A DNA stretch of 64,000 nucleotides from Rhizophagus irregularis. Lineage: Eukaryota. The stretch is from the NCBI RefSeq assembly GCF_026210795.1, contig NC_089430.1:4836001-4900000 (forward strand), read 5' to 3'. Made by a program: the position numbers and the translations under genes. The first letter of the stretch is position 1, and each line of letters starts with the position of its first letter. A model generated the notes under the pieces. It ran no database searches. It saw only the letters and a program-made list of their open reading frames with translations, and was not told where the DNA came from. This document shows positions 13,901 to 64,000 of the stretch, in pieces.

Positions 13901-14383
13901 AGGTATACTGATCTACAAATACAAATATATTAGTAAAAATTAAAAACAATAAAATTATATTGTATAATATATTTATTATACCTTATTTATGAATCCTGAT
14001 ATAAAATTATTTGAAGTACTTAAACTTTTCAGAACAATAAATGCATTATGACCTCCTCTTTCCCAATTTTTATTTTTATCATCCCAATAACATATATTTC
14101 CATCAATCCAATTTGCTCTATACATTTCACCAAGTTCATCTTTTGCAATATACTTAATATCATATAATCTATCATAAGGTATCCATTCCAATGCTTCTTC
14201 TATATTATCATGAGCTAATAACTGAGTATTTTGAATAAATTTATCAATATTATCATTACTACTAGTCCAATTTTTGAAATTTCGCTGAAAATGTATTGCG
14301 TAACATGTATTATTACATTTTTTACATCTCTCGACATGTGATAACGTAGTTATCTTCTTAATACTTTTAATAAAAGAATCCAT
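7953..14383 (-). CDS. Protein kinase (TKL-like) with 11 tandem N-lobe modules; 13 exons, ~1,860 aa if all exons are included
   Basis: Exons 14383-13982, 13912-13505, 13435-13013, 12945-12526, 12450-12001, 11931-11503, 11437-11009, 10937-10521, 10453-10040, 9968-9549, 9476-9048, 8961-8082, 8005-7953. All introns GT-AG; the first 11 are phase 0 and 65-86 nt; the frame stays open. Motifs KGGFGKVY, VALK, HQDLHIGN, DMG, APE, DIYSFG. The terminal exon is less certain. Confidence 0.85.
9048..14383 (-). repeat. Tandem array of 11 exon+intron units (~490 bp), each encoding CxxC..C..F + WTSGNxDIDKFIQ + LEWIPYD + kinase beta1-alphaC
   Basis: Eleven similar ORFs in the track (9042-14383) with ~490-bp period. 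Confidence 0.95.
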
Positions 14384-20300: not shown

Positions 20301-21314
20301 CTCGTGCATTTGATATTAGACTTTAAATTAAGCTATTTCTTAGTTAATTAAATTAATAAACATCAAATTAAAAATATTTATAATAAAAAAAAAATATATA
20401 TAATAATAAGTAAGATTGAAATTATTATCTGTTATACATTAATTAAAAAGTATGCAATTGTTATGAACATTACACTTAATCGAAGATTTTAATATAACAC
20501 TAATATTCACATTACGCTGGTAATTATAACGAGTTGAATATTTCAGCAAAAAATTATAATTTTATAGTAAAAAGTTTTCAACATTTTAATTTATTAACAA
20601 TTTAGTGATTTTTATTAAAATTTAAAAAATCCAAAGTTGCTACAGAATGCAAAAAATCGAAATTATTTTGATGAAAAAAAAAAGTATTTAAGAGAAATTA
20701 CAAATAGATAAATTTTTGTGAAATTAGTATCAATTAACAAAAGTCATATTAGATACTTCAGTTGACAAACAACTTGTCTTTCTTCATTATTAATTAATTA
20801 ATTGATTAATTGCAGCATTATTTTCAACAATAGAATTTCATATGTACCGTTTGGGTCAAAATTGCAATATTTTTATTTCCAAATTTTGATTTTTTGATTT
20901 TTCGTATGATTATTTGCCTCTATATAAATTACCAGATTTGAATATTAATTACCGAAATTTCTATATTTATAAAAAATGATATCAAATTTATGTAAGCCTT
21001 TTCATAAACAAAAACGTAATTTATATCCCAAATGGTAACTGATTCAAATAATGAAAAATGATTTTCATATTGCATGATACAAAACAACATGTAGATTCTT
21101 CCTTTTTTGAATCAGGCGGCATTATGTAATTTTGGCTCTGATCTTTTGTTACCTAATTATATATTATTCAGGTTTACCTTACGTCCTTACGCAGAGAAAA
21201 TTGACTTCCATTTATATAACCTTGGGCGAAGTTTTTTTTTTTTCCTAATTCAAAATTTATTTTTATTTTTTAAAAAAATTTCTTACATTCTTTTACATAA
21301 AGCAAAAAGCTTCA

Positions 21315-24202
21315 ATGGAATTGAAGTTAATTAATCATGATATTTCTGCTATTAAAAATAATATAAAATGTTTTAAGAGTAGTGATTTATTTATTCATCT
21401 ATCAACACATAGTAAATATGAAGCAATATTTAGAAGAAAATTGGAATGGATTCCTTATAATAAATTTTGTGATGTTAAATATATTGTAGTAGACATGTTT
21501 AAAAAAATGTATAGAGCAAAGTGGATTAATAAAAGAAACAGTGTGTTTCTAAAAAGTTTAGATGATCCAAATAACGTTACACCGGAGTTCGTAACAAGTG
21601 TATGTTTGAATTTATTATTTAATGAAATTTTTTCAAACAATCTTATTTATATTAACGTAATTTATTATTATCATAGATTACAGTACTACATGAAATTTAT
21701 GGAATAACTCAAGTCCCAAAAACAAAAACTTTTATGTTAGTTTTGAATGAAATGTGTGAAAAATGTAATATTATATGTAGTGCGATGCATTATCAACAAA
21801 ATTTTGAAAATTGGACTAGCGGTAATAATGATATTGACAAATATATTCAAAATACGCAGCTATTAGCACATGTTGGTCATAAAAATTCATTGGAATGGAT
21901 ACCTTATGATAGATTCTATGATTTTAAATATGTTGCAGAAGGCAAGTTTGGCAAGACGTATAAAGCAAATTGGACTGATGGAAATATAAGATATTGGTAT
22001 AGTAATAATTGGATAAGAGAAAATCCAAATATGCTTGTATTTCTGAAAAGCTTGAAAAATTTAAAAGATATTACATTGGAACTTAATGAGGTATAATATG
22101 AATTTGTATTATAATATATAATTGAGAACTCAATTTCACTAAATACTAATGTATTGTTTTTGTAGATTACGGTACCTCATAAATTCTATGGAATAACTCA
22201 AGATCCAAAAACAAATACTTATATGGCAGTTTTGAGTGAAACATGCGAAAATTGTGATAGTATATGTAATGCAATACATTTTCAACGAAATTTTGAAAAT
22301 TGGACTAGCGGTAATAAAAATATTGATAAACTTATTCAAGACACCCAGCTATCAGTACATAGTAAATATGCATCAGTAATTAAAAAAATATTAGAATGGG
22401 TACCTTATAATAGACTTTATAATATTAAATATATCTCAGAAAGCAATTATAAAGCAACTTGGATTGATGGATGTATAGATAAATGGGATCATCATAATAA
22501 TAAAACTTGGAAAAGAAAAGAACAGAATTTGATTGTATTTCTGAAAAGTTTAGATAATCCAAATAATATTACGTCAGAATACATAAATGAGGTATATTAA
22601 ATTTATTATTTAATGTATGAAATTTTTTTTTTAATTTTGATTTTTACTATGTTTATATTTGTAGATTTCAAAACATTATGAAGTTTACGGAATAACTCAA
22701 GATCCAGAAACAAAGAATTATATGATGATTTATAATGAAGTATGTGGAAAATGTAAATATATATGTAGTGCAATACATTTTCAACGAAATTTTAAAAATT
22801 GGACTAGTGGTAACATAAATGTTGATAAATTTATTCAAGATATTCAGTTGTCAGTTCATAAAGACACTAATATAAGAAACGTATTAGAATGGATACCTTA
22901 TGATAAATTTAACAATATTAAATACATTGGGAAAGGTGGATTTGCTAATGTGTATAGTGCAGAGTGGGCAATAAATGGTCAACATAATAAATTGGTCGCT
23001 CTAAAAAGTTTAAATAATTCAAAAAATATTACATTAGAATTTATGAATGAGGTATGATTATTTTATTTTATTTATTAAGAATTTCGAAATTTTGCTTTTT
23101 TGTAATATTTATTATATTTATTAATATTTCTTTTATATATATATATAGATTGCTTTACATAACAAAATAGGAAATTCTTTTTCTATTATTGATTTTCATG
23201 GTATAACTCAAGATCCAAAAACAAAAAATTATATGATGGTTTTGGAATATGCAAAGGAAGGAAGTTTACGAAATTATTTAGATAAAAATTATAATGAATT
23301 AAGTTGGGATGATAAATTACTTCATTTATATTATATTTCATCTGGACTTGTATCTATTCATAAAAATGGTTTAGTTCATCGAGATTTTCATATAAGCAAC
23401 ATATTGGTATCCAACTACACAAAAATAACTGATATGGGATTATGTAAACCTGTAAATTATGATGCATCAGAAAATACAAAAAAATGTATATATGGTGTTT
23501 TGCCTTATATTGCTCCTGAGATTTTACAAGGTCAAAGTTATACCAAAGCTGCGGATATTTATAGTTTTGGTATTATTATGTATGAAGTAATTTCTGGGTT
23601 ACCACCATATCATGATGTAAGTCATGATAAAAATTTAGCGATAAAAATTTGTCAAGGGCTTAGACCAAAGTTTAACATTAAGGTACCACAATTAATCGTG
23701 CATTTAATTAAAAAATGCTTAGAAGCAAATCCATTAAATCGACCAACAGCAGATGAAATTGAAAAAATTTTATGTAGTTGGCGTGATAATCGTGTAGTAG
23801 AATTACAAAAACAAATTAAAGAAGCAGAAGAAATGAATAATAAATTACTAGCTGGTGGTATACATTCAACCAATTTAAGAGTATCATATAGGACACATTC
23901 TGAAGCTATTTATACAAGTAGATTACTTAATTTTGATAATCTTCCCAAACCAAAAAATTCTGATTATTATTATGAAAAGAAGGATACTAGTATGAATAGC
24001 ATTGAATCTTCAGGTACTGTGCGTTTAATAAAAAAAAAAAAATATTTAAAACAATTATAATAAATGCTAACTAAAACTTTATTTATTTTAATTAGCGCCA
24101 TTGTCTTTACAAATTGATGTTTCAAAATTGAATATTAACTACAATAATAATCCCGCCAAATCGAAAAATTCTGGTGCTTATTATAAACAAAGGATATTAT
24201 AA
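21315..24202 (+). CDS. Protein kinase (TKL-like) with 4 tandem N-lobe modules (the first is partial)
   Basis: Exons 21315-21599, 21677-22090, 22166-22591, 22665-23051, 23149-24013, 24096-24202, GT-AG, in frame. Motifs GKGGFANVY, VALK, HRDFHISN, DMG, APE. The 3' end is uncertain: a repeated tail exon lies near 24294. Confidence 0.82.
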
Positions 24203-26303: not shown

Positions 26304-29300
26304 ATGTTAAAAGAAACGAAAGAAACCGACCCTAAAGAATCAAATTATTATGTCGATTGGTTAGACAAATCGATTGCAAATGAATACTTCAATTATTATG
26401 AATTTTCGGAATTTAAAAATTTAGAACTTATAGGAAGTGGTTCATATGGAAGTGTCATTCGTGCTAATTGGAAAAATATTGAAAATTTTTTCGCTTTAAA
26501 AACTTTTAAAAATTATGACAATATAATGTTAAAAGAACTTGTTAATGAGGTAATTAATCTCGGCTATCTTCATAAATTTTACAAATTGAAATTAAAATAT
26601 GATTTCTTTTCCAGATAAAATTACAAAAAAGAGTTGATTTTCACGAGAATATTATACGGTTTTATGGCATCACGAAAGTGGAAGCTGGTAAGATTCAAGT
26701 GCTAGCATGTGTTACATTAACGTTTTGGTTTAACACACTCTTTTTTATCTAGAAAAATATTCGTTAGTCTTAGAATACGCCGACAATGGTACACTAAAAA
26801 CTTATTTAAATAATCATTTTAATGGACTTAATTGGATTGATAAATATCAGTTGGCATTTCAACTAGCTAATGCAGTAGAATGTTTACATGATTGTAATAT
26901 TATACATCGTGATCTGGTAATAACAAATTACTAACTTATAATTTGCTATTTTAATTATAATCGTATCGTACTAAGGTTTTCATTTATAATAATAGCATGC
27001 AGATAATATACTTGTACATGGGAAAAAGATAAAGTTAACAGACTTTGGTTTATCAAAAAAAATTTCTGAAGCATCAAGCAAAACATCAAAAATATTTGGT
27101 GTAATACCTTTTATCGATTCAAAAAAATTATATGATCAAGGTTACAAATTAAACAAGAAATCTGATGTATATAGCGTCGGAGTTTTGATGTGGCAAATTT
27201 CAAGTGGCCGTCAACCTTTTTCTGATTATAATTATGATGCAATTTTATCCTTGTCCATAGCAAATGGCAAGCGAGAAGAAATTATTGACGGTACTCCTAA
27301 AGAATATTGTGACTTATTTGCAGGTAATGAATATGATTATAAATATTTTTAATTCATTAATTCATTTATTAATGTGATTTATTTTAACCAGAATGTTGGA
27401 AAGATGATCCAGATGAACGTCCAAATATACAAAATGTCGTTTCTATTCTTTATGAAATAATATTTCCCAAACAAGAAGGTATAACTATTACTGATAATGT
27501 TAATAAAGAAAAAGAAAATAACCAACTGAAAAAATTTGAACCAATTTCTAAATCAATCGAAACCATGGAATTAAATAATGAATTGATATCATATAATGGA
27601 TTAAATATAAGTTGTGAAAATAATTTATCAAGTTCATCAATTCAAACAAATATATCAAAAATTTCATATGGGTCAACATTTGATAAGACTAATAATATAA
27701 TTGTTCAAAAGTTAATTAAGGTTATAAATAGAAAACATGATAAGGAAAGTATTAATTTTCGAGATTTTCAACAATTTATCAATCAACAAGTATTTGAATT
27801 AAATCTAAGTTCAAATAATCTTATTAAATGGCTAACTAAACAAGTAAATCCACAATATAATTATTTACTTGGACTACTTTATTATTATAACATCTGTACA
27901 GAAGAAAATAGTACAAAGCATTGGAATTATTCTTGAAAGCATCTAAAGACAATTATTTGACTGCACAAGTTTATCTTGGAAAATGTTATAATGATGGATA
28001 TGGAATTAAATGTAATAAAAATTTGGCATTTGATTGGTATCGAAAATCTGCGGAGAATGACAGTATAATTGGACAATTTTATTTGGGAAATTGTTATGAA
28101 TTTGGCATTGGAACTGCAAAAGATTTTATAAAATCAGTACATTGGTATAAAAAAGCGGCAAAAAGAGGAAATACAAGTGCAAAACTAAATCTTGCAAACT
28201 GTTATAGATTAGGAAAAGGTGTTGAAAAAGATGAAATTAAAGCGTTCATGTATTATAAAATTTTAGCCAAACAAGAAATTTCAGATGCTCAATGTCAACT
28301 GGGAGATTGTTATTATAATGGGATTGGAACGAAAATAGATGAAATACAAGCTAAATGTTGGTATGAAAAGGCAACAAAAAATGGAAACATTGTTGCAAAA
28401 GATAATCTTTTAAAGTACTATGATAAAAGACAAAAGTTAAAAATAAGTAATATTAAGGAAATTAAATTTCAAAAAAGATTAAGTTTTAAAGGTTTCAAAT
28501 ACTTTATGACTAAATTTACAAAAATTAATCAAGAAAATATATTTAGCATAGTTCAAATAGTGGCAGAAAATAAAAATAAAGGGTTGCCATTTGATTTAAT
28601 TAATCACTATAAAAAAGATAAAGGTGTAAGAAAAGATGGAAGAAAAGCTTTTGAATTCCATAGACTTTTAGCTGAACAAGGATATATAAATGCAAAATTT
28701 CAACTTGGATATTGTTATGATGAAGGAATTGGAATTGATATTAGTAAAGTAAAAGCATTTGAATTATATAAAGTAGCAGCAGAAAAAGGAAATAATGAAG
28801 CACAATATAATTTGAGTATTTTATATGAATTAGGAGAAGGAGTTGATAAAAATGAGGAAAAAGCATTTGAAATAATTAAAAAATTAGCAGAAAAAGGAGA
28901 TCCGGATGCAAATTATAAACTTGCTTACTACTATAATAAAGGAATCGGAACTGAAATTAATAAATCAAAAGCATATGAATCATATAATATAGCAGCTGAA
29001 ACAGGAAACAATGAAGCACGATTTAATTTAGCCATATTATATCAATTTGGAGTTAGTGATGATAAGAAGAAAGCATTTAAATTAATGAAAGATTTAGCGG
29101 AAAAAGATGATGTAAATGCTCAATTCAAACTTGGATATTATTATGATGAAGGAATTGGAACTAAAATTAATAAATCAAAGGCATTTGAATTATATAATAT
29201 AGCAGCTGAAAAGGGGAGCAATGAAGCACGATTTAATTTATTTAATTTAGCCATATTATATCAGCTTGGAGATGGAGTTAATGAAGATAAGAAGAAAGCA

Positions 29301-30542
29301 TTTGAATTAATGAAAGGTTTAGCAAAAAAAGATGATGTAAATGCTCAATTCAAACTTGGATATTATTATAATGAAGGAATTGGTACTGAAATTAATAAAT
29401 CAAAAGCGTTTGAATTATATAGTATAGCAGCTGAAAAAGGCATTAAGGCACAATATAATTTGGCCATTTTATATCAATATGGAGAAGGTATTAATAAAGA
29501 TGAAAAGAAAGCGTTTGAATTAATAGAAAACCTAGCCGCCGAAAATGATTTAGATGCTCAATTACAGCTTGGATATTATTATTATGAAGGAATTGGAACT
29601 GAAATTAATAAATCAAAAGCATTTGAATTGTCTAAAGTAGCAGCAGAAAAAGGAAATACTGATGCACAATTTATTTTAGGTACATTATATCAAATTGGAG
29701 AAGGAGTTGCTAAAAATGAGAAAAAAGCATTTGAATTAATAAAAGATTTAGCTGAAACAGATTATTCAGATGCTCAATTTCAACTTGGATATTATTATAA
29801 CGAAGGAATTGGGATCAAAAGAGATCTTAAAAATTCCTTTTACTGGCACCAAAAAGCAGCAGAAAATGGCAATAAAACCGCACAGTATGATATAGGTGAA
29901 AGCTATGAATTAGGAATTGGGACTGATAAAGATTTAATTAAAGCATTTTATTTTTATGCAAAATCGGCTGAAAATGGAGATATTTGTGCAAAATTTCAAC
30001 TTGGATACTGCTATATAAATGGTATTGGAACGGAAATTAATAAAGTAAAAGGATTTGAATTATATAATGAGGCGGCTGGCACTAATATCCAAATTAACCT
30101 TATTGAAAATGATGAAGAAATAGTAAATGATTTAGACAAAGTTAATTATTAGTATCACAAAGCTGCAGAAAATGACAGTAAACTTGCATTATATAAATTA
30201 GGTGAATTTTATGAAGCGGGCATAGGTGTTTGTAAAAATGAAACACGGGCTTTTGAATTCTATAAGGAATCAGCTGATCAAGGGTATATAGATGCTCAAT
30301 ACAAAGTTGGGTATATTTATAATTATGGAACCCAAATTGATATTGATAAAGAAAAAGCATTTAATCACATTAAGATTGCTGCAAAAGGAGGAAATGTTGA
30401 TGCACAATACAGCCTCGCATCTTTATATGAACAAGGAGTAGGAACTGAAAAAAATACCGAGAATGCCATTTATTGGTACAAGAAAGCCGCAGAAAATGGA
30501 TGCCAGGAAGCTGAAAAAGGTTTAAACTTATTATTAAAATAA
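26304..30542 (+). pseudogene. Kinase + Sel1-like-repeat protein, disrupted by a frameshift (~27917) and a premature TAG (30150-30152)
   Basis: Kinase exons ~26304-26549, 26615-26686, 26753-26915, 26996-27323, then 27392 onward: GSGSYG, FALK, HRDL|HADN, DFG, DVYSVG. Many Sel1 repeats follow (AQFQLGYYYxEGIGT). The frame continues after the TAG (expected TGG in YWYHKAAE) to TAA at 30540-30542. Confidence 0.8.
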
Positions 30543-46241: not shown

Positions 46242-49200
46242 TGTAAGTTTCGTTTCAAAACTTACATATTTTTTTTTAATTTTTTTTTTTAATTTAAGAA
46301 ACGAATTTCTTTTCATTGTTTTTTTTTGTAGGACGCCAGCTTTAACACGAAACTAGACTTTAAGGTAAAAAACGGGAAAGTGAAGTTTTGTTAATTTAAG
46401 AAACAAACTAACGTTTCTTTTCATTATTTTTTTTTTGTAGGACGCATAGGAGGACGCCGGCTTTAACACGAAACTGGACTTTAAGGTAAAAAATAGGGAA
46501 AAGGGAAAGGAGAAGGGGATTTAGAACCAAGATTCTTAAGAATCTTGGTTTTTATTTTTTTTAATATTTCGGAACGGTTACTAACCGTTCCTTTCTTTTT
46601 TATAGGTTTCGGGCAGGCTTCCTGGTTTTGAAGAATGGAAAAGAACCAAAATTCATAAGTAAACGAATCTTGGTTTAATTTTTTTTGTTTTTTTTTTGTA
46701 ATATTAACGAACGGTTACTAATAACCATTTTTTCTTTATTATTTTAGGATCGGGTTGGCTTCCGAATTCCGAAGAACAGAAAGAACTAAGTTTCGTAAGT
46801 ACGAGTATGAAACTTGGTTTATTTTTTATTTTTTTTTTTTCCTATTATATGAATGGTTACTAACCATTCCTTTCTTTTTCTTATAGGTTCGGCTCGCCTG
46901 CCATGAGTTTTCCGAAGAACGGAAAAAAACTAAGATTCTGTACTACAAATCTTAGTTTTTTTTTTCTTTTTTAATATTTGGAACGGTTATTACTAACCGT
47001 TCTTTTTCTTTTATTTTTTATAGGTTCGGTGTCTCAGGAGAGGCTTCCGAGTTCTGAAGAACGAAAAAAAAACCAAGATTCGTAAGTATATACGAATCAT
47101 GGTTTTAATTTTGTTTTTTTTTTAATTTTATTAATGAACAGTTACTAATAACCGTTCTTTCTTTTTTTAGGTTCACGAGTTCTGAAGAATAGAAAAGAAC
47201 TAAGATTCGTAAGTATATACGAATCTTGGTTTTAATTTTTTTGTTTTGTTTAATTTTATTAATGAACGGTTACTAATAACCGTTCTTTTCTTTTTTTAGA
47301 TTCGGATGGGCTTCCGATCTTTGGAAAAAGTGGAACCAAGATTTATAAGTAAGTACAAATCTTGGTTTAATTTTTTTTTATTATTATTATTACGAACGGT
47401 TACTAATAACCGTTCTTTTCTTTTTTTTTAGGATTGGGTGGATTTCCGAATTCCAAACAACGGAAAATTAAGATTCATAAGTAACTACTAATTACGAATC
47501 TTGATTTTTTTTCTTTTTTTTAATATTATTAATGAACGGTTACTAATAACCGTTCTTTTTTTTTTCTTTTCTTTTTTTTTAGAATCGGGTGGATTTCTGA
47601 ATTCCGAAGAACAGAAAATCAAGATTCGTAAGTAACTACTAATTACGAATCTTGATTTTTTTTTCTTTTTTTTTTAATATTATTAATGAACGGTTACTAA
47701 TAACCGTTCTTTTCTTTTTTTTTTAGGATCGGGTGGATTTCCGAATTCCAAAGAATGGAAAATCAAGATTCGTAAGTAACTACTAATTACGAATCTTGAT
47801 TTTTTTTTCTTTTTTTTTAATATTATTAATGAACGGTTACTAATAACCGTTCTTTTCTTTTTAGGATCGGGTGGATTTCCGAATTCTGAAGAACGGAAAA
47901 TCAAGATTCGTAAGTAACTACTAATTACGAATCTTGATTTTTTTTTCTTTTTTTTTTAATATTATGAATGAACGGTTACTAATAACCATTCTTTTCTTTT
48001 TTTTTAGGATCGGGTGGATTTTTGAATTCCGAAGTACAGAAAAGAACCAAGATTTGTAAGTATATACGAATCTTGGTTTTGTTTTTGTTTTTTTTTATTA
48101 TTTGGAACGGTTTACTAACCGTTCCTTTCTTTTATTTTTTAGGTTTCGGGTTGACTTCTGAAGATCAAAAGAAAAGGAACCAAGATTCGTAAGTAAGTAC
48201 GAATCTTGGTTTATTTTTTATTTTTATTTTTTATTATTTTGGAGCGGGTACTAACTGTTCCTTTCTTTTATTTTATAGGTTCGGGTGGGCTTCCAAGTTC
48301 CGGAGAATGGAAAAAGATCAAGATTTGTAGTAGAGCTCCGAATGGGTCAGGTCAGGTCAGGTTAATTGATAAACCTGACCTGAAATTTTTTTTCAGGTCA
48401 GATCAGGTCAGGTTATATCAGGTTGTCTGTTTGACCTGACCTGACCTGAAACCTGAAAAATTTCAGGACTATTTTTATTAAGTATTGAAAAAAAACGGTA
48501 CAAAACGTTTTTTTTTTAATATAACATTATGAAAAAAATGTTTTCGCAACGTTTTTTTCTCGAAATATTGCGATTCAACATTTTTATATTAAAATCATAT
48601 AAAAAAGTGAATCCCAATACTGCAATTCACGTTTTTTATATAGAATTAATATAAAAAAAGTGAGTTGCGGTATTGCGATTCACTTTTTTATATAGATTCT
48701 ATATAAAAAAAGAGAGTTGCGGTATTGCGATTCACTTTTTTATATTGATTTCATATAATAAAAGTGAGTTGCGGTATTGCGATTCACTTTTTTATATAGA
48801 TTCTATATAAAAAAGTGAATCGCAATATCGCAACTCTCTTTTATTATATGAAATCAATATAAAAAAGTGAATCGCAATACCGCAACTCACTTTTTTTATA
48901 TAGAATCTATATAAAAAAGTGAATCGCAATACTGCAACTCACTTTTATTATAAAGTAGAATCAATAGGTTCAGGTCAACAGGTCAATCAGGTCAGGTCAA
49001 TCTTCATACCTGACCTGAATTTTTTTTAAAAATCTCATACCTGACCTGAATTTCAGGTCAGGTCAGGTCAGGTTACCTGAATTTGGCTGACCTGTTCAGA
49101 GCTCTAATTTGTAGGTATATACGAATCTTGGTTAAATTTTTTTTATTAATATTAATGAATGGTTACTAATAACCGTTCTTTTCTTTTTTTATAGGTTTGG

Positions 49201-52300: not shown

Positions 52301-52900
52301 AGAAATAGCAACACGAAAATAAAAATAATTTATTATTTATATCATTCTAATATTATAAATAGAGCTCCGAATGGGTCAGGTTAGGTCAGGTTTAAGGTTG
52401 CTTGCCGAAACCTGTTTGGCCTAATGCCGAAAGGTGAAACCTCTTATATAGTGCCGAAACGCCGAAACGCCAAAACGCCGAAACCTGTCAAAATTGCGAA
52501 ACTGCCGAAACATGCCGAAACCTCTATAATAGGTTTCTCTGTAGTTTCGGCATAGTTGATCATAAGATTTGCATATAGTTACGCCAAGTTACACCAATTA
52601 ATAATATAATTTAGATGATCAAATAATCTACAAATAAAAGATTAAACTTCAATATTTTACTGTCGTCTTAGTTCTTTTAAGCTTTATCTAGTGTTAGAAT
52701 TTTCATTTCTAACTCCCATATTAATATTATGATATTACACGTTTTTACAGTTTTTTTTTAAGGGGCTTATATTCATTAAAGGAAAATGCGTAACATGCAT
52801 TTAATAAACCCAATTCCGTCATCTCCTTTAACACTGAACTAAAGTTTCTTTTACTTTCTTCCATTTTCTTAATAATAATATTAATAATAAACTGTTTCAA

Positions 52901-55201
52901 ATGACTGATCACATAGAAGATTCACCCATTAAAATGAAAAATAGAGGAGGTCGGCCACCTAATAGCATTTGGGAAGATATTAATAAAGGAGAAGCTGTTG
53001 GTTCTGGCAAATTTGCCGCCTCCTGCAAGTACTGTAAGAATACATGGTCACGCGGTGAAGTTTCAAAGCTCGAAGAGCATCTTTCAAACCATTGTCCAGA
53101 TGCGCCAGCAGCAGTTGTTAGAAGGTATATGACTAAAGTAATAGAACGGCAAGATAAGTCCAAGTCATCCAAAAAAGAAAAATACTCTGAAGGTCAAAGT
53201 AACATGGATGATTACCATGATTCAACAGAGCTTAACGAACAAAGATGTACACGAATTAATCGTGCATTAGTTAAATTTTTTATTGCGTGCGGAATTGCGT
53301 TTAGAGTAGTGGAACATCCCTTTTTCATCAATTTTATAAAAGAGCTTAATGCCGGGTACAATACACCAACAAGGGAAGTATTAGTAAATCAACTACTTGA
53401 ACGTGAATTAGCTCAAGTGAACTTCAAAGTTAATTCTGAGCTTGAAAAGGAAACGAATTTAACGTTAGGTTTGTTAAATTAAATAGGCTATCATACGTCA
53501 TTTTTATTTAATCTTACTTACTATATAATATTAATTTATAATTTAGCCTTTGATGGTTGGACGTCTGGTACACATCGTTCAATTTGGAACTTCATTGTAA
53601 TGACTCCGTCGCGTAAAGAATATCTTTATCAACTTTCTGATTTGTCTGAAAATTCGCACACTGCAGAATATCTAGTTACAGTAATTGAAAAGGTTATAGA
53701 AGGTATTGGAGAAGATCGAATATGTGCTGTAGTTTCCGATAATGCGGCCAATGTTCGTAATGCACGAAAAATTATACATGAGAATCATCCAAAGATTGAG
53801 AATGTGCGATGCGTTGCACATTCTATCAATTTAATTGCATGCGACATCGTCAAGGAGAAGTTTGGGGAACGTTTATTAAAACGTGTTAATATTTTGACAA
53901 CCTTTTTTAGAAGTTCTCATCAGGCTAATGCAAAACTTGCTCAAATAATTAAAGAAAAAGGAATTAGTGGAGGAGGATTAAAATTATATTGCAAGACACG
54001 CTGGACTACTGCTAGTGAATCCGTAAATTCAGTAATAAATTTGGAATCAGCACTAGAAGAAATGGCCAGCGATCACGATAAAGTGCTAACAAATGATAAA
54101 ATAAAACCGATTATTCAATCGAGAAATTTTTTTTCAAATTTACGAGTTCTTGGGTTTGTTCTGGATCCTCTAAGAAAAGCGGTACTTTCATTAGAATCGA
54201 GAAGAGCTACACTTGCAGATTGTTTCCTGAGCTTGGCAAGACTTGCAGCTACATTAAAAAAGTTACCCAAATCATTAAATCCTGCATTCCGAAGTCATTG
54301 TATCAAAGTAATAAATGAAAGATTTGATGAATTCGATGATGATAAGTATATTACTTGTTTTTTTATGGATCCCAGATTTAGAAACGCGCCACTTAAAAAA
54401 TGCGCCCTCATGAGAATTATCAAATGTGCAGCTTCAATCGGGAAAAATTTAGGTTTCGACCGTTACGAAGCTGAAACTTTATGTGATCAAATACAGAAAT
54501 ATATTAATGAGCAAGAGCCATTTGACCTAGATATCGGTTTTGCTAAAGATAATCCTGTGAATTGGTGGAAATATATTAATACCGAACCAGAACCAGATGT
54601 CCTGCCAAGAATTGCAAGTTATCTATTTGCAATATGTCCTAACTCAGCAACTTGCGAACGTGGATTTTCGACTTTAGGATGGCTATTTCATAAACGTCGC
54701 TTAAATCTTAATGTGGATAAACTAGAATCCATGTGCAAATTAATTTTGTATTGGAAATCCAATTCAAAAACTGAACTTGGATTTTATGGAATTGATCAAA
54801 AAAAGAATACTCGTCTTAGTGATGATGAGATCAATATACGTATTGCAGAAGCTTTTGCAGAAGATGACGATGAGGAATATAATGAGGAGCAAGCTTCTAC
54901 TCAGAGATTAACTACAAGCGGCGAAACAATACCCGAAGACAATTGCCGTGTAGTAATCGAAAGTCTATGGATTGATCAATTTGTTAATTTATCGCATGAT
55001 TCAATTACTAGTGAAATCGGCGATATTCCAAGAGATATATTGGATGATTCAGATGAAAATAATGCGGAAGATGATGAAGTTGATGATAGTGGTAATAACA
55101 AGAGACCCGGAGAAGGTGACTATGATTATGATATAGATGATGTATTAGGTATGGATGACGGTGATAATAATGACGATAATTATGATGATAATGAGGAATA
55201 A
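52901..55201 (+). CDS. hAT transposase, intact, 740 aa, 2 exons (52901-53468, 53547-55201)
   Basis: BED zinc finger (W...CKYC...LEEHLSNHC); catalytic motifs LAFDGWT (formed across the intron), VSDNAAN, CVAH, TRW, ATCERGFS; acidic tail. Confidence 0.92.
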
Positions 55202-55377
55202 TAATAATGAGAAATAATTACAATAGTTAATCCAATGAGAATTAATTCTAATATCATGTGATTTAAATAATGATACTATTTAGGAAATAAATGATGTAAT
55301 TATGCAGGGCAAAATATTCACGATCAAAGTCCAGTTAACATATAATTATGCAGGCAATGCAGGCAATTGTAATTTTA

Positions 55378-55532
55378 TATTATATTTTAAAACATTGCAA
55401 TTTAATTAAGGAATAAGGATAAGCATATTATATTTTAAAAATAGTGCAATTTAATTAAGGAATAAGGATAAGCATATTATATTTTAAAAATAGTGCAATT
55501 TAATTAAGGAATAAGGATAAGCATATTATATT
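55378..55532. repeat. Three tandem copies of a ~49-bp AT-rich unit between the transposase and the cargo gene
   Basis: atattatattttaaaaatagtgcaatttaattaaggaataaggataagc repeated three times. Confidence 0.8.
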
Positions 55533-55870
55533 AGAATCAATAAGTTTTAAGGACTTCGTTAATTAAATTTATTACATTAGATCAATAAATTTTAAGAACT
55601 GCGTTACAAAAAAAAATTTAGAACTGCGTTAATTAAATTTATTACATTAGAATCAAAACTGTGTTTATTTTGTTACAAATACTTTAATTATGTAGAATGT
55701 TATTATGTTCATCAGTTCATGTTTTAAACATTATAACGAATTTTAAAATTATTATAAATATTATGAAATTTGAATTTTTTTTTCGCAATTCAAAACCAAA
55801 TTGTATTTTAATTTTCAAATTGTATTTAATTTTCAAATTTCAAGTTACGAAAAAATCATAAAAATAAAAA

Positions 55871-56545
55871 ATGGCAGCATTAGTACCTTTTGTCCCACCG
55901 CCACCACCAGTATTCCAATGGACGATTAACGCAGCTAGGCAATTAATCGCGAAGCGGAGAAACTTACATCAGCAATTTGAAAGAATTGCAAACCGTCATC
56001 ATGTAAATGCATGGACAATAATAGCAAATAGGGTGTTCGTTGCAACGGGATTTGCAGCGACACCCAGGCAATGCCAAACAAAATGGAATGCCCTCAAACG
56101 AGGTTATGAAAACCTCAGTAGGATAATAAATAATAATGATGACGACATTCCTATTATAAGCCCAAATAGTTTCGATAGAGCGTGTTTTGCTGATATGAAC
56201 GATGAATTCTGGTTACAAACCGGTAATTATTATTAATTATTATTTTAAATTAATTTTATTTAGGCAATTCATTCAATTCATTAATATTTTTATTGGATTT
56301 TAGATCTGTTTAGACGAGAGTATCGACGGCAGCATGCTGCGCATGATCGACATCGATATGAATATAGATTGCGAAGGGAAAGAAGAAGGTCGCGATCTAG
56401 GTCTCGATCAAGAAGTAGATCAAAAAGTAGAGATAGAAGACGAGATAGAAGTAGAGATAGAAGACGAGATAGAAGTAGAGATAGAAGACGGGACAGAAGT
56501 AGAGATAGAAGAAGAGGTAGAAGCAGGTCCCCACATAGAAGATAA
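55871..56545 (+). CDS. Myb/SANT (trihelix)-like domain fused to an RS/RD-repeat tail, 197 aa, 2 exons (55871-56222, 56304-56545)
   Basis: WT...LIAKR...WTIIANRV...TPRQCQTKWNALKRGY. An 81-nt GT-AG intron leads in frame into RRSRSRSRSRSRSKSRDRRRDRSRDRRRDRSRDRRRDRSRDRRRGRSRSPHRR*. Confidence 0.8.
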
Positions 56546-57819
56546 AGATATTATTAAATTTTAATTTTTATTATATTTTTAATCGTGTATTTTATTAGTT
56601 TAATATTAAATATTATAAAATAAATATTTACATACAAAAAATCATATTGTCTTTAATCTTTATTCTTATAAATTGTTTAAATGCCGAAACTCTAATTAAA
56701 TCATATAGAAAGTATTGCCGAAACGCCGAAACAGTTTTGGCAAGTTACGGCAGTTTCACGATTTTGATAGGTTTCGCAGTTTCGGCATTTCTTGATGATT
56801 TCGTGAAACTAGTTTCGGCAGTTTCGCGTACGCCATTCTGCCGAAACCCTCTAGTTTCGGCAAGCAACCTTAGTCAGGTTAATTGATAAATCTGACCTGA
56901 AATTTTTTTTCAGGTCAGGTCAGGTCAGGTTATATCAGGTTGTCTGTTTGACCTGACCTGACCTGAAACCTGAAAAATTTCAGGACTATTTTTATTAAAG
57001 TATTGAAAAAAAATGGTACAAAACTTTTTTTTTTAATATAATATTATGAAAAAAAACGTTTTTGCAACGTTTTTTATTAAAATATTGAAAAAAAATATTG
57101 CAAAACGTTTTTTTTAATATAACATTATGAAAAAATGTTTTCGCAACATTATTATTGAAATATCAAAAAAAAACGTTACGAAACATTTTTTAATATAATA
57201 TTATAAAAAAACGTTTTCGCAACATTTTTTCTCGAAATATTGCGATTCAACATTTTTATATTAAAATCATATAAAAAGTGAATCCCAATACTGCAATTCA
57301 CTTTTTTTATATAGAATTAATATAAAAAAAGTGAGTTGCGGTATTGCAATTCACTTTTTTTATATAGAATTAATATAAAAAGTGAATCGCAATATCGCAA
57401 CTCACTTTTATTATATAAAATCAATATAAAAAAGTAAATCGCAATACTGCAACTCACTTTTTTTATATAGAATCAATATAAAAAAGTAAATCGCAATACT
57501 GCAACTCACTTTTATTATATAAAATCAATATAAAAAAGTGAATCGCAATACTGCAACTCACTTTTATTATATAGTAGAATCAATAGTTTCAGGTCAACAG
57601 GTCAATCAGGTCAGGTCAATCTTCATACCTAGTGTTTGGATCCAGATAGAAACCGTCATCCGGATAAAATAAAAAAATTATCCGGTTTTTATCCAGGTTA
57701 TCCGTTTCGGATAAAAATCCGGATATATCTGGATAAAAACCGAAATCCGGATAAATTTATATTAAAATTTTTTTTGTAGATCGGTTTTAACAGATAATTT
57801 TGTGGAACCTAATAAATAA

Positions 57820-58205
57820 ATTTCGTGGTACTTATTTGTGGCTTTTAATTAAATTCGTGGCAATTATTTAATTAATCATAAAAACAATAGCATTTATTAG
57901 TTAAAATCGTGGCATTTATTTAATTAAAATCATGGCATTATTTGATTAAATTGATGGCTTTAATTTGTGGCTTTATTTAAATTAAATTCGTGGCATTTAT
58001 ATGATTAAGTTCATAGCATTTATTTGTTTAAATTCGTGGCATTTATTTGATTAATTATGGCTTTAAATTTGTGCAAGGCTTTATTTAAATTAAATTCATA
58101 GCATTTATGTGATTAAATTCGTGGCATTTATATGATTAAATTCATGGCATTTATATGATTAAATTCGTGGCATTTATGTGATTAAATTTGTGGCATTTAT
58201 TTGAT
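57820..58205. repeat. Degenerate ~22-bp tandem repeat upstream of the hAT-B transposase
   Basis: attaaattcgtggcatttatatg-like unit repeated about 15 times. Confidence 0.75.
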
Positions 58206-59728
58206 TGAAATTTATGCACATTTGTGCCAATTAAAATTTGCAAAATTTTATTAATTAAATTTTGATTTATGAATTATTTATTTTTTATCAAAATTAATCT
58301 AGCTCTAAGCCTTAATTGAAATAAATAAATAGTGCATTTATTTTCCATCTTTCTGGATTTTTTTTTATAATTTCATTTATTGAATAAATAAAATAATTCA
58401 TAAAATTATGGAAAATCAAAATTATATTGTCTTAAGCGAAAATGAAGGTTCTAGTGATGAAATTGCAGAAATTACTCCAATACCATCAAGAAGAGGACGC
58501 CCTGCAAAATCATCTAAAACATTTGGAAAACAAAAAATGGCAAGTACTAGTGAAAAATCAGATCAAGAATCATTAACTGCATTTGAATCAACAAGTCAAA
58601 TATCAAATGATTCAAATCCCTTTAAGCAAACTACTTCAAAAATCAAGCCACAAACAAAAGTAAGTTGGGTATGGGATTATTTTGTTAAAAAGCAAAATGA
58701 AAGTGGAGAAGTACGTGCATATTGTCAGTTTATATTAGAAAATGGGGAAAAATGTTCAAAACACTATAAATATGATGGATCTACAGGAAATCTTAGTTAC
58801 CATGCTATTAAACATGGAATTACACCACCTACAGAAAGTATTACATCTGAAAATAAATCAATGCCAACTCAATCTACTATGTCCAATATTAATGGACAAA
58901 AAGAAAAAGAATTATCTACATTACGATGGATTCTTTTAACAACCCAACCACTTTCTACTGTAACTAATAAGGCCTATATTGAGCATATGCATATTATTGA
59001 TCCAATATTCACAGTTCCTGGAGCAAAAAAAATAAGAATGATGATTGCTCGTAGTTATGGGTATAATAGAGATAAATTAAAGCTACTTTTAAAAACTGCT
59101 CAATCAATATCTTTAACTACTGATTTATGGTCTTCTCGTTCAAAACATGGATATTTGGGTTTAACAGCAACTTGGATCAATAAAGATTTTGAAATAATGG
59201 ATGTTTTGCTTGAAATTTCTTATTTTCCAACCCCACATACTGCACAAGCAATTACTGAAGTAATCAAAAAAGCTATTCAAAAATGGGAAATTGAAAGCCA
59301 GGTTATATCAATAATAGCAGATAATGGAGCTAATATAGTAGCTGCCATTCGAGATTTAGAACCAATTAAAAGACTCTCTTGTGCTGCCCATACCTTACAA
59401 TTGGCAATTAATAAAGGTTTAAAGGTTGTAGAAGATTTGGTATCACGTGTAAAACAATTAATCAATTTTTTTTCCACTCAAAAACAAATTGAAAGACTGA
59501 TTAACGTTCAAAAAGACATTGGTTATAAAGAAACATACCATTTAATACAAGATATATCTACTAGGTAAATTTTTTACATTTAATTAATTACTATTCAATT
59601 AAATTTTAATATTTTATTATTATAATTTTAATTAAAATTTGATGTAATTTTATTTGATTATTTAAGGTGGAACTCTTCTTATTTAGCATGGGATAGGCTT
59701 ATTTTTCTTCAATATGCAGTACTTCAAC

Positions 59729-62424
59729 TAGGGTATGGAAGAGTTCAGGTCCAGGACTTTAGGACTGAGTCTTTGAACTCAGTCTTGGTAAGACCTAGTC
59801 CTAATTTTGGGACTTAATTTGGACGGTCCCAAATCGGTTTTTATAATAAACAATATAAATAAATTTAGAGATTAATTTCGCAGATCTTTACTGCAATTTA
59901 ATAAGTCATGTGAAATATGTAAATCATGACACGTCTCTTACCGTCAAAATTTTCGCGTTTTGCATTTTACTTTACTTCACTCTTCCCATTGTTTTTTCCT
60001 TCCCATTAAATTTTTCAGTAAAAATGTCTTATTCGAATTATGATTTTGAAGATTTTAACAATTTTGATGAATTTGAACCTTTTGAACAAGATGCACCTCC
60101 TATAGAAGATGAAGAAAATGATGATAATGATGACAGTGAAGAAGAAACCTCACCTCAATCTCGCCGAACTTCACCAACATGGAAGTATTTTAACGAACAA
60201 ACAACTCAACATCCAGGATATCCAGTTTGTTGCAAATGTCAATGTGTTTTTGGAAAAAAAACTGGAATTTCAACTTTAAAACGACACTTAGAATCTATAC
60301 ATAAAATAAAGATAGGAAATGTCAAAAATACAGGAAAGAATCAAAGTATTTTGAATTTTAGGCAAACTGATCCTTGGCCTGAAAAAGAAAAAAATGAACG
60401 AGATATTGCAGTAGTAGAGTGGGTAATTGGAGATGCACAACCCTTCCGTTCTGTTGAAAATTTGCGATTTAAAATTATGATCAATAAATTTGATTCTCGA
60501 TATCAAATTCCAGATGAAAAAACAGTAAAAACTTTGGTAGTTGATTATTTTAAAGAAAAACGTAAAAATATACAAGAAGATCTAAATGCAATTCCGGGCA
60601 AATTATCTTTAACAGCCGATATGTGGACTTCAACATGTAATAATGATGCATTTCTTGGCCTGACAATTCATTATGTTGACAATAATTGGAACCTAAAAAA
60701 CTTTTTATTAGATATTATTTCTTTTACTACCCGTCATACTGGAAATAATATAGCAAATGCAATAAAATCAGTTTTAACAGAATTTAATCTACTTGAAAAA
60801 ACTTTGGCTTTAACTACTGATAATGAATCGGCGATGGTAGTTTGTGGAAGAATAATTGCAGAAGAACTTACAAAAGAACTTAATGATCAGTCTTTTCGAC
60901 ATTATAGGTGCTCTGCACATATTTTAAATTTGGCCGCGCAGCAAGGAATTAAAATTATTGATGATGAGGTTGTTAAAATTCGTGAGTTAATGAAAAAAAT
61001 TAAACACTCAACTCTAAGGTGTGATAGATTACGAGAATTGTGTTCAATAGAAAATTTAACATATTACAAACCACAATTAGATGTTGAGACCAGGTGGAAT
61101 AGCACCTATTACATGATTGTAAAATTCCAAAAAATGTTGCGACCTATTGAAATGTTAGCTGCAACAGATCAAGACATTAAAAAATTCGTACCGGACGCGC
61201 AAGGATGGATAAAAATAAATGTAAGTGTTAGCTATTCTTCATTAATAACGATATTAACATTAATTAATAACATAACTAATCCAAAAAATAAACTACATTA
61301 TGACTAATTTACAATATAAATAGGATACACTTACGTTACTGGAACCATTAGAAAAAGCAACAGTATTGCTTTCAGCTTCCTCCTATCCCACCATTTCTGA
61401 TGTAAGGTTTTTGTTTCTTGGAATCCAACAACATCTAAACGATTATATTGGAAAAGAAGAATTTAGTCAAAGTGAAGTAGCATCATCAATACTTCAAAAA
61501 ATTGATCAGTATTGGGAAGTAGTGGATTCATCTACCTTAGCGTCTACGGTACTAGATCCACGCACAAAACTTACTTTGTTTTCTGCTGGAGAAGAATCAA
61601 CAAATGCAATTAATGCAGTAAAAAGGCGTTTTTCTGAATATCATACACCAATGTCTCAACCAGCTGTAATTAATCATGATAATGGTGAAATAGCAAGCAC
61701 TCGTGATTACTTTCATCAATTAAAGAGGAGGCGATTAAATAATAGTACCGCATTAAATATTACAAGACCATCAACTGGAATTTATGAGGAGATTGACCGG
61801 TATCTTGCTTTGCCATGTGATGATAATGTTGCGCCATTGCTATGGTGGCAGGTTCATTTTCGAGAGTTTCCAGCATTAGGTGCAATGGCACGAGACTATT
61901 TATCCATTCAGGCTACTAGTGTTGCGTGTGAGCAAGCATTTTCTGTGGCGAGTAATACTATAACTCGCACAAGAAATAGATTGCAACCAGATACGTCTCG
62001 TGCATTATTGTGTTCAAAAAGTTGGCTTGAAAAAGGAATAGGAAAGAAAAGAAATTAAGAGTAATGGGTAACGTTTAATTGTTTATAGTAATATAATCAC
62101 TGTATATACTTTTATTAATCAAGTTCAGAAAAATTTTTTTCAACTTACAAAATAAAAAATGTGGCTTTGGTGGGAATTATTACAACGCCATTACTTAAAT
62201 GGTTAGCATTTTGATTATCGACGAATTAATAAATTTTTTTTGTAGCTCGTAATAAATAAATTATTTAAGTATTTTTTGTTTAAAATTAACCAATCAATTC
62301 AATCGGGACTAAGTCCTAACTTAAGTCCTAGTTTCGGTCCTTAAACTGGGTCCGGTCTGTCCATGTGCCAGGACCTGTAAGTCTTGGGACTTTAACCGGA
62401 CTGTAACGGACTTTCCATTCCCTA
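59729..62424 (+). mobile_element. hAT-C: compact, apparently autonomous hAT (2696 bp)
   Basis: TSD acttcaac (59721-59728, 62425-62432); TIR tagggtatggaa / ttccattcccta (11/12); ggact/agtcc subterminal repeats. Confidence 0.93.
60024..62058 (+). CDS. hAT transposase, intact, ~643 aa, 2 exons (60024-61220, 61324-62058)
   Basis: BED finger (TWKYF...CCKC...LKRHLESIH), LTADMWT, TTDNES, CSAH, TRWNSTY, ATSVACEQAFS; phase-0 GT-AG intron 61221-61323. Confidence 0.92.
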
Positions 62425-64000
62425 ACTTCAACTAAATATAAATTTGTCATGTTCTCTCAAACCTGAAGAAAAAGCTGATGGTAATAGATTAAAAAAACTT
62501 GTGTTAAAGGATAATGAATGGGAATTATTGGATGAATTATGTAATATATTAGCACCATTTGAAAAAGCTACACGAGATTTTTCTGGAAGTACCTATATAA
62601 CATTAAGTCAAATGTTCCCCATCATTACAAATCTTACAAATTCCTTAAAACCAGTTGATAATTTACATGAGGAATATGAAGAACCTGATGATAATACCAT
62701 TATATCTGATACAGAAGAGAATTTAACTAACCAGTCAACTGGAATAGATTATAATAATATTTCAGAAGTTATAAAAAATGTAAAAAAATATATATATATA
62801 GGCTTTAAAACACTACTGGTCAATGCCAGATGAGTTTGGCATTATGGCAGCACTTTTAGACCCACGATATAAAGATCTTAATTTTATATCTGATGAAAAT
62901 ATAAAAGTAAAAATTCATTCAAGTTTACAGATACAATATGATCAGTTGAAAAGAGAAATGCAACAACAAATTAGTACTCCACCATCACCCACAATTACAC
63001 CAATTTCAACAATTTCAGCTGATACTAGTAGAAGTTCAACTCCCAGTACAAAATCTTTACATGAGTATAGAGAGATGCGTGAAAAATCAATAAGAAAAGT
63101 ATTTCAAACAACAGAAAAATCTACTGCATCATCAACAATAGCTGATGAAATTACTACTTATTTTCTCTTGCCAGTTGTTAGAGAAAATAAAAATCCATTA
63201 AATTGGTGGAAGACTAAAAAAGAAAATTTTCCAATTCTTTCTATTATAGCACAAAAATACTTAGGAATTCCTGCTACTTCTGTAGCTTCTGAGCGACTTT
63301 TTTCTGATGCAGGGAATTACATTACGGCAAAAAGAAGTTTATTGGATCCTAATTTAGTAGGAAAAATGGTATTTTTAAAACGCAACATGCAAACTATGGA
63401 TCATATTAATGTATTTCCACCAGATTTAGAAGTGGAAAATAATGATTTTGTGGAGGATGAGGATGTATTAGAATAATTGATATTAAATTTATTTTTGTTA
63501 GTGTCTTATTTTTATTATGTAAATGTTTTTAAATAAAGTGAATTTTACTTTTATTAAATAAAATGATAAATCTTTTAGTAAGTTATATTTTTTTACTCTT
63601 TTATTGAATAATTCTATTCTAACAGTATAAGATTTATTGTATTATATAAAATAAATTCTAAATCATGATAAAATAATTTTATTAGACAAATAAATCTTTT
63701 TTTATTAATAAATCAATGATACAAATAGAATATTTTACAAATGAAATGAAAATTAAAAGGATAAAATTAAAATCAAAAAAAAATTTTTTTTTATCCGGAT
63801 TCTGGGTCAACCTGGATAATTTTTAACCGGTTTCTTATCCGGGTAAAAACCGCAATTATCTGGATATCCGAAAAAAAAATTATCCGGATATATCTGGTTG
63901 AATCCGGTTACGGATCCAAACACTATTCATACCTGACCTGAATTTTTTTTAAAAATCTCATACCTGACCTGAATTTCAGGTCAGGTCAGGTCAGGTTACC

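Follow-up and report, generated by a model that had tools for sequence, protein, structure and literature searches.

DNA transposons of the hAT and pogo types, and most MULEs, are usually treated as one-gene elements, and the Myb/SANT protein of PIF/Harbinger elements is a transposition cofactor. Sharing of accessory genes among DNA-transposon superfamilies is already known. In passages of Kojima 2025 (PMC12730594), TET/JBP dioxygenase genes occur across many DNA-transposon superfamilies of rusts, mushrooms and truffles, and portions of a study of red algae (bioRxiv 10.1101/2025.02.11.637652) describe Plavaka accessory genes, PAG1-3, that are shared between Plavaka and Mutator elements. VANC, from the Mutator-like VANDAL elements of Arabidopsis, is presented in excerpts of PMC5735166 as a proven motif-binding anti-silencer that acts on motifs in its own elements. 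About half of the Rhizophagus irregularis genome consists of repeats (in sections of PMC11075540), and its transposons are, according to parts of PMC8647823, methylated and a source of small RNAs, with recently expanded hAT and TcMar families that include many low-methylation copies. What is new here is a Myb-RS cassette with its own conserved motif in AM fungi. We are confident that this gene is a portable cassette under selection, found inside several hAT clades and shared with pogo and MULE.

The window, by which we mean the whole 64,000-nucleotide stretch of AT-rich, fungal DNA that was analysed, contains a 4,480-bp hAT element of clade A (hAT-A; 52393-56872). It is bounded by perfect 19-bp TIRs (52393-52411 on the forward and 56854-56872 on the reverse strand) and by identical 8-bp TSDs (52385-52392 and 56873-56880). 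The TIR occurs twice in the window, against 0.01 occurrences expected by chance; GCCGAAAC-type subterminal repeats follow the left TIR to about 52550 and begin at about 56680 ahead of the right one. The transposase, encoded on the forward strand by 52901-53468 joined to 53547-55201, runs without stops over 740 amino acids and matches DUF659 (E 6e-21), Dimer_Tnp_hAT (E 3e-5) and, slightly short of the curated cut-off, zf-BED (E 8e-4). Its 78-nt GT..AG intron (53469-53546) is skipped in a 3,039-nt contig of run X11. With short TIRs, an 8-bp TSD and a transposase that combines a BED finger, an RNase-H core and a dimerisation domain, the carrier belongs to the hAT superfamily. It is inserted into a non-autonomous element (MITE) of hAT clade B, whose left end occupies 52360-52392 on the forward strand and which resumes at 56881; an uninterrupted paralogue at 48331-49106 of the same window represents the empty site. 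RNA reads and contigs depart from hAT-A exactly at 52392, and reads do likewise at 56873, with other flanks beyond, so copies with hAT-A ends exist at other loci.

Several further features of the window were noted. The spliced transposase contig of run X11 (window 52392-55425) starts 83 nt outside the TIR, which suggests read-through from a flanking promoter at another locus. Over 52360-64000 the elements are nested: the hAT-B-type MITE contains both hAT-A and a second hAT (57630-63925, 8-bp TSD), and the second hAT contains a third (59729-62424, 8-bp TSD). MITE copies at 48331-49106 and 57030-57570 carry internal 52-bp palindromic tandem repeats. By eye, 8071-14392, 21249-24060 and 27912-30542 hold typical AM fungal expanded genes, namely kinases behind many exon-sized repeats and one Sel1-like repeat kinase.

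Downstream of the hAT-A transposase lies a second gene (55871-56222 joined to 56304-56545, forward strand), whose 197-amino-acid product ends in RSRSPHRR. Exon 1 (55871-56222) encodes a trihelix/Myb-SANT domain (W17, W48 and W72) and a conserved C-terminal extension, SPN..D..F...DEFW. An 81-nt, phase-1 GT..AG intron (56223-56303), conserved in position throughout the family, separates it from exon 2 (56304-56545), which encodes a conserved RRxYRRxNAxxDRRRYEYR segment, an RS/RD tail with 21 RS/SR dipeptides in this copy, and the stop. The second and third hATs of the window both lack the Myb gene, so the gene is dispensable.

A contig of run X10, an RNA run by our guess, skips the intron exactly, with 0 differences over 96 nt of exon 1; run X16, which is DNA-like, retains it. 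Raw reads in all four runs show a joint at 56222, and in run X24 the 11 reads with letters shown continue into 56304-56318, their source being a diverged, frameshifted copy (1-nt gap). Read depth at the gene was low (95-173 reads per approximately 11 million), and 55888-56043 (residues ~6-58) was almost without read coverage at 92% identity. The Myb gene is transcribed and spliced, as seen from partial coverage, and part of its expression stems from broken copies. The initial annotation had described an intact two-exon gene downstream of an intact transposase and between perfect TIRs, and the 19-bp TIRs and the 197-amino-acid reading frame bear this out. The junction it predicted, 56222^56304, is present in RNA (the X10 contig, and X24 reads onto 56304), and its RS exon ending in RSRSPHRR agrees with both the exon-2 translation and the RNA join. 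Many public gene models use a later acceptor, giving an acidic tail, or run into the intron, giving a truncated one, and in this way hide the RS domain. We rejected the acidic-tail frame (acceptor 56313) because RNA joins to 56304 and the first AG gives an Arg-rich frame family-wide; the corrected exon 2 frame amounts to an annotation fix for public models of the gene. On the opposite strand, an antisense intron (CT..AC on the forward strand; window 56403-56635) spans the RS exon and the 3' region, and is skipped in reads of three of the four runs and in contigs of run X11. Such spliced antisense transcripts across the gene could feed small-RNA silencing.

Residues 16-91 of the product match PF13837 (Myb_DNA-bind_4) above cut-off, with E 2e-10, and W17, W48 and W72 are invariant in 24 alignment rows. 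The nearest solved domain by sequence is the DNA-binding domain of GT-1 (E 3.5e-5). The predicted model (pLDDT 79, pTM 0.68) consists of a three-helix domain, whose third helix is long, and two additional short helices. Together, the Pfam match, the three tryptophans and the modelled helices confirm the Myb/SANT-like domain of the initial annotation. By shape, the best match was the DNA-binding domain of fission-yeast Sap1 (Foldseek E 0.09); VIA-align gave Z 9.9 for Sap1 (rmsd 4.5, 95 residues aligned), 8.1 for NgTRF and 7.9 for GT-1, and a sequence-profile search at E up to 1 returned no Sap1 match. These scores indicate a Myb-type fold, not a function. The GT-1/Sap1/TRF-type fold makes the N-terminal domain a predicted sequence-specific DNA binder, and its predicted recognition helix, QCxxKWxxLKxGYEN, is found in nearly all of 68 uninterrupted exon-1 models. 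GT-1, Sap1 and NgTRF1 share with it a three-Trp helix-turn-helix with a long third helix, and the C-terminal extension appears in the model to pack as it does in Sap1 and NgTRF1; unlike the present gene, however, these are single-copy host regulators without an RS tail, and identities are 12-26%.

The tail resembles those of SR proteins, U1-70K and transformer in being rich in RS, RD and RSRSP. SR proteins differ in that the folded domain here is a predicted DNA-binding domain, and no RRM was found in Pfam scans of the exons or of one spliced homologue. The only Pfam hint for the tail was Transformer (E 0.92), which is compositional, and the tail may perhaps be merely a basic nuclear or nucleic-acid-binding one. 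PIF/Harbinger elements (Nuwa, in passages of PMC12730594) are likewise DNA transposons in which a gene apart from the transposase encodes a Myb/SANT domain, but their TSD is 3 bp rather than 8 bp, and the present cassette has an RS tail and is not bound to one transposase. By the defining features tested, the gene is neither an SR protein gene nor a Harbinger gene.

Relatives were sought in metagenomes, where 155 pattern matches yielded 96 confirmed relatives. The best 80 of these 96, with the window, made 81 loci (numbered with L), which form 31 clusters at 90% nucleotide identity. In 75 of the 81 loci a phase-1 donor follows the DEFW motif, at the same intron position as in the window. Exon 2 was modelled from the first AG past the donor, ignoring content. 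Of the 75 models, 55 were intact, with a mean exon 2 Arg fraction of 0.44 (minimum 0.26) and 4-27 RS/SR dipeptides each (n = 55); the remaining 20 were broken, cut short where contigs end, or mis-modelled. At 39% identity, a spliced relative retains the RS tail. Pooled over 8 disjoint pairs, some of them near saturation, dN/dS was 0.12 for exon 1, 0.27 for the first 23 codons of exon 2 and 0.37 for the tail, where the alignment is uncertain. The Myb gene is under purifying selection, with dN/dS among homologues below 1 as the initial annotation had anticipated (about 0.12 in exon 1).

The closest named homologues of the gene are R. irregularis proteins at 97-99% identity, which makes this species the most likely source of the window. 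Named matches among close relatives are from Rhizophagus without exception, most relatives being sequences from soil or roots without a species name; in the Atlas, the nearest clusters belong mainly to Mucoromycota. Among the members listed, at least 26 annotated copies, often broken, belong to the gene set of one R. irregularis strain. The family is deep: a threshold of E up to 1e-10 gave 91 representatives, which include some unrelated multi-repeat trihelix proteins, and multi-repeat trihelix proteins are also among the next relatives beyond the family. Scans of genome-contig and viral-contig collections returned no relative, as expected for a fungal gene. In one contig a further Myb copy (L075:1150-1500), broken and from a different subfamily, follows the first in tandem, and P0109 and P0110 represent a subfamily that apparently has an extra in-frame intron within the recognition helix, read through in annotation.

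A transposase, an element-associated ORF or a transposon end lies on the contig in 25 of the 31 clusters. Eighteen of the 31 are hAT-linked: transposase sequence is present on the contig in 13, and an end or subterminal repeats alone in five (L008, L015, L016, L017 and L019). The hAT clades with distinct TIRs are A (that of the window), B and C, and repeats of another occur in L008, which brings the carrier clades to three, probably with a fourth. Relative to the hAT transposase the gene may be tandem, divergent or convergent. Both TIRs enclose it in four loci: the window and L003 (clade A), and L037 and L045 (clade B); a clade C TIR lies 3' of the gene in L019 and L023. The TSD was found in the window only. 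L003 and L037 have both TIRs without a matching TSD, so metagenome contigs may be collapsed or chimeric. It is possible that joins through near-identical cassettes yield false carrier pairings and blur the assignment of ends to transposases, although chimeric joins of this kind presuppose the cassette in both carriers. The hAT-A label of L015 is weak, its strict subterminal-motif count being 0. The same contig holds a Tet_JBP oxygenase ORF (L015:3-1331, E 1.4e-9) upstream of the gene, apparently in AM fungal DNA; we rejected a link between this ORF and the cassette as incidental because hAT-A-like subterminal sequence, judged by eye, intervenes.

Seven further clusters are associated with MULE (the L054 group), pogo (L059), Helitron (L070, L071) and Plavaka-like genes (L072, L077, L078), and two hAT-B clusters contain pogo-linked members (L026, L029, L057). 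Pogo transposases (DDE_1, HTH_Tnp_Tc5) lie directly upstream of the gene in L026 and L029. These two have their 3' region in common with L057, which ends in a TIR-like end and has the same G-rich repeats as the left end of L026; for pogo, L026 and L029 join the transposase to the gene, and a separate contig, L057, joins the gene to the right end. A MULE transposase (PF10551) precedes the gene in L055 and L060, where transposase, gene and right end are present without the left end, and the flanks of L054 and L060 part at a single position on the 3' side of the gene, as they would where an element ends. In the Helitron locus L071 the gene lies between an unnamed ORF and RepHel. That ORF (L071:570-1541, L070:130-1107), upstream of the Myb gene and RepHel, has fungal clusters in the ESM Atlas and only a weak SSB lead (0.79); it may be a single-strand-binding gene of Helitrons. 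None of the carrier contigs yielded a pogo, MULE, Helitron or Plavaka element complete with its two ends, and adjacency to Plavaka-like genes (L072, L077, L078) was not treated as proving carriage. The carriers are three, probably four, hAT clades together with pogo and MULE, with Helitron and Plavaka/CACTA less secure. A fusion annotated in R. irregularis, in which the end of a second subfamily is joined to a DUF4218 protein (E 1e-5, just under cut-off), hints at a further carrier, DUF4218 being presumably CACTA-associated. Six of the 31 clusters, on contigs of 1.0-3.5 kb, are without an assignable carrier (L051, L068, L069, L073/75, L074/76 and L079).

The expectation that the gene would sit consistently inside hAT TIRs was borne out, four loci having both TIRs around it. 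It is not hAT-specific, however, and moves between superfamilies, occurring also with pogo and MULE. Capture in a single copy does not describe a gene with relatives in 31 clusters, and of the findings that would have pointed elsewhere, separate TIRs or TSDs around the gene and a Harbinger transposase were absent and the intron is spliced. A scan of 60 + 12 neighbouring ORFs (the 60 picked from 113 listed) gave no Harbinger-type family. We rejected a PIF/Harbinger Myb gene because the neighbour is a hAT transposase, the TSD is 8 bp and not 3 bp, and the gene lacks TIRs of its own. A cassette with its own TIRs likewise found no support, because the flanking inverted repeats are the carrier's and shared downstream k-mers are coding or low-complexity; a 28-bp AT-rich direct repeat flanks the cassette in L010 only.

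We compared the gene tree (45 rows, 35 labelled and 10 unlabelled, with near-copies and fragments omitted) with carrier labels that had been assigned from flanks before the tree was viewed. The tree implies 11 carrier changes versus a minimum of 7, and AU tests reject a single clade for hAT-A (p 6e-6), hAT-B (8e-55) and pogo (3e-7). The gene tree is discordant with carrier type. The cassettes of L037 (hAT-B) and L026 (pogo) are 93% identical over 953 nt, and those of L058 (hAT-B) and L057 (pogo-type end) 99% identical over 769 nt. In hAT-A elements the gene has for the most part diverged together with the transposase, to identities as low as about 48%, L053 and L054 being the exceptions. The transposases of L053 and L013 are 77% identical and their Myb exons only 59%; the L053 Myb gene groups with MULE and pogo copies, and the L053 and L054 cassettes belong with MULE copies. 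In L080, of the L053 cluster, a decayed piece of a MULE-type 3' end precedes the hAT-A repeats, which suggests capture from a MULE. L009 and L010 have an orphaned promoter at the site where the related element L023 has the gene, and a different cassette across the transposase from it. Separately, a GC-richer non-coding block of about 110 bp downstream of the gene (L060:2678-2859; matches in L027-L034, L047, L057 and L059) is common to MULE-, pogo- and hAT-B-borne cassettes, and could represent either a conserved 3' element or an internal portion of a MULE end.

The upstream region of the cassette, its presumed promoter (55250-55870, forward strand), is shared with relatives in other carriers, with 10-mers found across 28 representative loci. 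It contains two forward-strand copies of a conserved motif, AATTATGCAGG, at 55298-55308, 97 nt past the transposase stop, and at 55344-55354. Among the 19 cluster representatives with at least 600 nt upstream, 16 carry AATTATGCAG upstream of the gene, versus 0.02 expected by shuffling, and the other three have variants of it; outside these upstream regions, its sole occurrence in the loci is in an orphaned promoter copy. In nine tandem loci the motif lies 35-397 nt past the carrier's transposase stop. It is kept down to 47% protein identity, and the end repeats are wholly different between carriers. The motif may equally be an ordinary host transcription-factor site in the cassette promoter. 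Three 49-bp tandem copies in the same region (55385-55532, forward strand) are a local amplification and are not conserved. As binding targets, the initial annotation had suggested the gccgaaac repeats of the hAT or these 49-bp repeats, and neither proposal gained support. The predicted recognition helix is near-invariant across carriers with unrelated end repeats, which argues against a gccgaaac target and for a site on the cassette, and the 49-bp unit is single upstream of the close relative L003 (by eye) and thus not a conserved feature.

These features place the cassette close to, and apart from, the systems described above. As with the TET/JBP genes in the passages of Kojima 2025, one accessory gene occurs within several superfamilies including hAT, its tree is discordant with the carrier, the shared segment has no terminal signature, and escape from silencing is proposed. 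In contrast to that enzyme, the present product is small, has an RS tail and is predicted to bind DNA sequence-specifically; the cassette brings a conserved upstream motif; and its swaps are more recent, at 93-99% nucleotide identity versus at most about 80% in those passages. The lineage here is AM fungi, and the passages of PMC12730594 contain no match for Rhizophagus or Glomero. PAG1-3, in the portions cited, differ in having methylase, SET and oxygenase domains in giant elements, against a 1.3-kb cassette here. Like VANC as excerpted in PMC5735166, the product is a transposon-encoded non-transposase protein with motifs in its own element as the presumed target; VANC proteins and their targets diversify fast within one lineage, whereas the present family has a conserved predicted recognition helix and a conserved candidate site, both of them portable from one superfamily to another. 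The Myb-RS protein gave no VANC-type Pfam match. No account of a Myb-RS cassette in transposons of AM fungi came up in the literature, Repbase and supplementary TE libraries being outside that scope; passages of PMC11075540, PMC8647823, PMC13465315 and PMC13547354 give 0 matches for Myb.

We propose that this spliced, selected cassette encodes a protein that likely recognises a site within the cassette and likely maintains expression of the carrier transposon, a proposal to which we assign an even chance; a mechanism that is both pro-expression and self-targeting falls, in our estimate, a little short of even. The N-terminal Myb/SANT domain would bind DNA sequence-specifically. Its target would lie on the cassette itself, since a trans-acting product most simply stays selected in unrelated carriers if its site travels with the gene, and AATTATGCAGG would be the best candidate. 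The RS tail would bring the protein to the nucleus and recruit splicing or RNA-processing factors, or else maintain active local chromatin, and the transposase mRNA would thereby escape small-RNA and methylation silencing. Poor splicing is known as an RNAi trigger from Cryptococcus. An anti-silencing or splicing-recruitment role, as the initial annotation had suggested, would be plausible. Cassettes would be exchanged when elements insert into one another and parts are deleted, and when homologous cassettes recombine, rather than by way of ends of their own.

The same cis-site logic would serve an autoregulatory repressor, which binds the cassette, represses its own gene and the neighbouring transposase, and so limits damage to the multinucleate host; the position of the motif just beyond the transposase stop in the nine tandem loci and the low transcript levels are consistent with such self-restraint. 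We consider it unlikely, because L003, a non-autonomous element without an intact transposase, keeps an intact gene, because L009 and L010 lost the gene, kept its promoter on one side and hold another cassette on the other, and because repeated capture by new families would fit a benefit to spread better than a brake. The tracking of transposase and Myb identities in hAT-A to about 48%, which speaks for long co-descent, and a Pfam clan shared with the Harbinger/Nuwa Myb-SANT proteins (in passages of PMC12730594) fit instead a cofactor that binds subterminal repeats and the transposase and imports the latter to the nucleus, the Arg-rich tail being a localisation signal. Such a cofactor appears quite unlikely given near-identical cassettes with unrelated transposases and end repeats, and a predicted recognition helix that is almost invariant across carriers; moreover, hAT transposases have their own BED finger, and the other hATs of the window do without the gene.

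A replication factor is suggested by the best structural match of the model, Sap1, which covers the C-terminal extension that GT-1 lacks and is, in parts of PMC6053445, a Myb-extension protein in programmed fork stalling. Bound to the cassette, it could pause forks or alter origin use, and post-replication excision would then bring a gain in copies to cut-and-paste carriers, a benefit independent of superfamily. This is very unlikely: identity is 12% only, without a profile match at E up to 1, a Z below 13 for a helical bundle may mean a common arrangement only, with NgTRF (8.1) and GT-1 (7.9) close behind, and the RS tail would go unexplained. We give a similarly low probability to a host-useful transcription factor merely spread by transposons, with selection on a host function or on nuclear competition in the coenocyte. 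The six clusters without an assignable transposon on short contigs and the depth of the family (91 representatives, unrelated multi-repeat trihelix proteins among them) agree with it, and a host ortholog may exist, but 25 of the 31 clusters are transposon-linked, the at least 26 often broken copies in one strain form the pattern of a transposon family, and selection was measured between copies in different elements. Neutral cargo captured once might account for the 20 of 75 broken or short models, AM fungal repeat regions being heavily nested (in passages of PMC13465315); a dN/dS of 0.12, a conserved intron, a frame kept through many tail indels and a non-coding motif conserved down to 47% protein identity make it extremely improbable.

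If the self-targeting, pro-expression reading is carried further, the 1.3-kb cassette, with its predicted DNA-binding RS protein and its own site, could be a portable anti-silencing plug-in that protects any captor (hAT, pogo, MULE, Helitron or CACTA/Plavaka) from RNAi and methylation via recruited RNA-processing machinery; we offer this as a possibility and regard it as doubtful. That a selected cassette is swapped among unrelated families suggests that they face the same barrier in the host and get past it by the same means. If true, such a plug-in would live as a symbiont of transposons and give fungi an example of counter-silencing with sequence specificity. The small expressible protein and its 11-bp candidate site give a handle on transposon activity in a methylating, AGO-rich symbiont.
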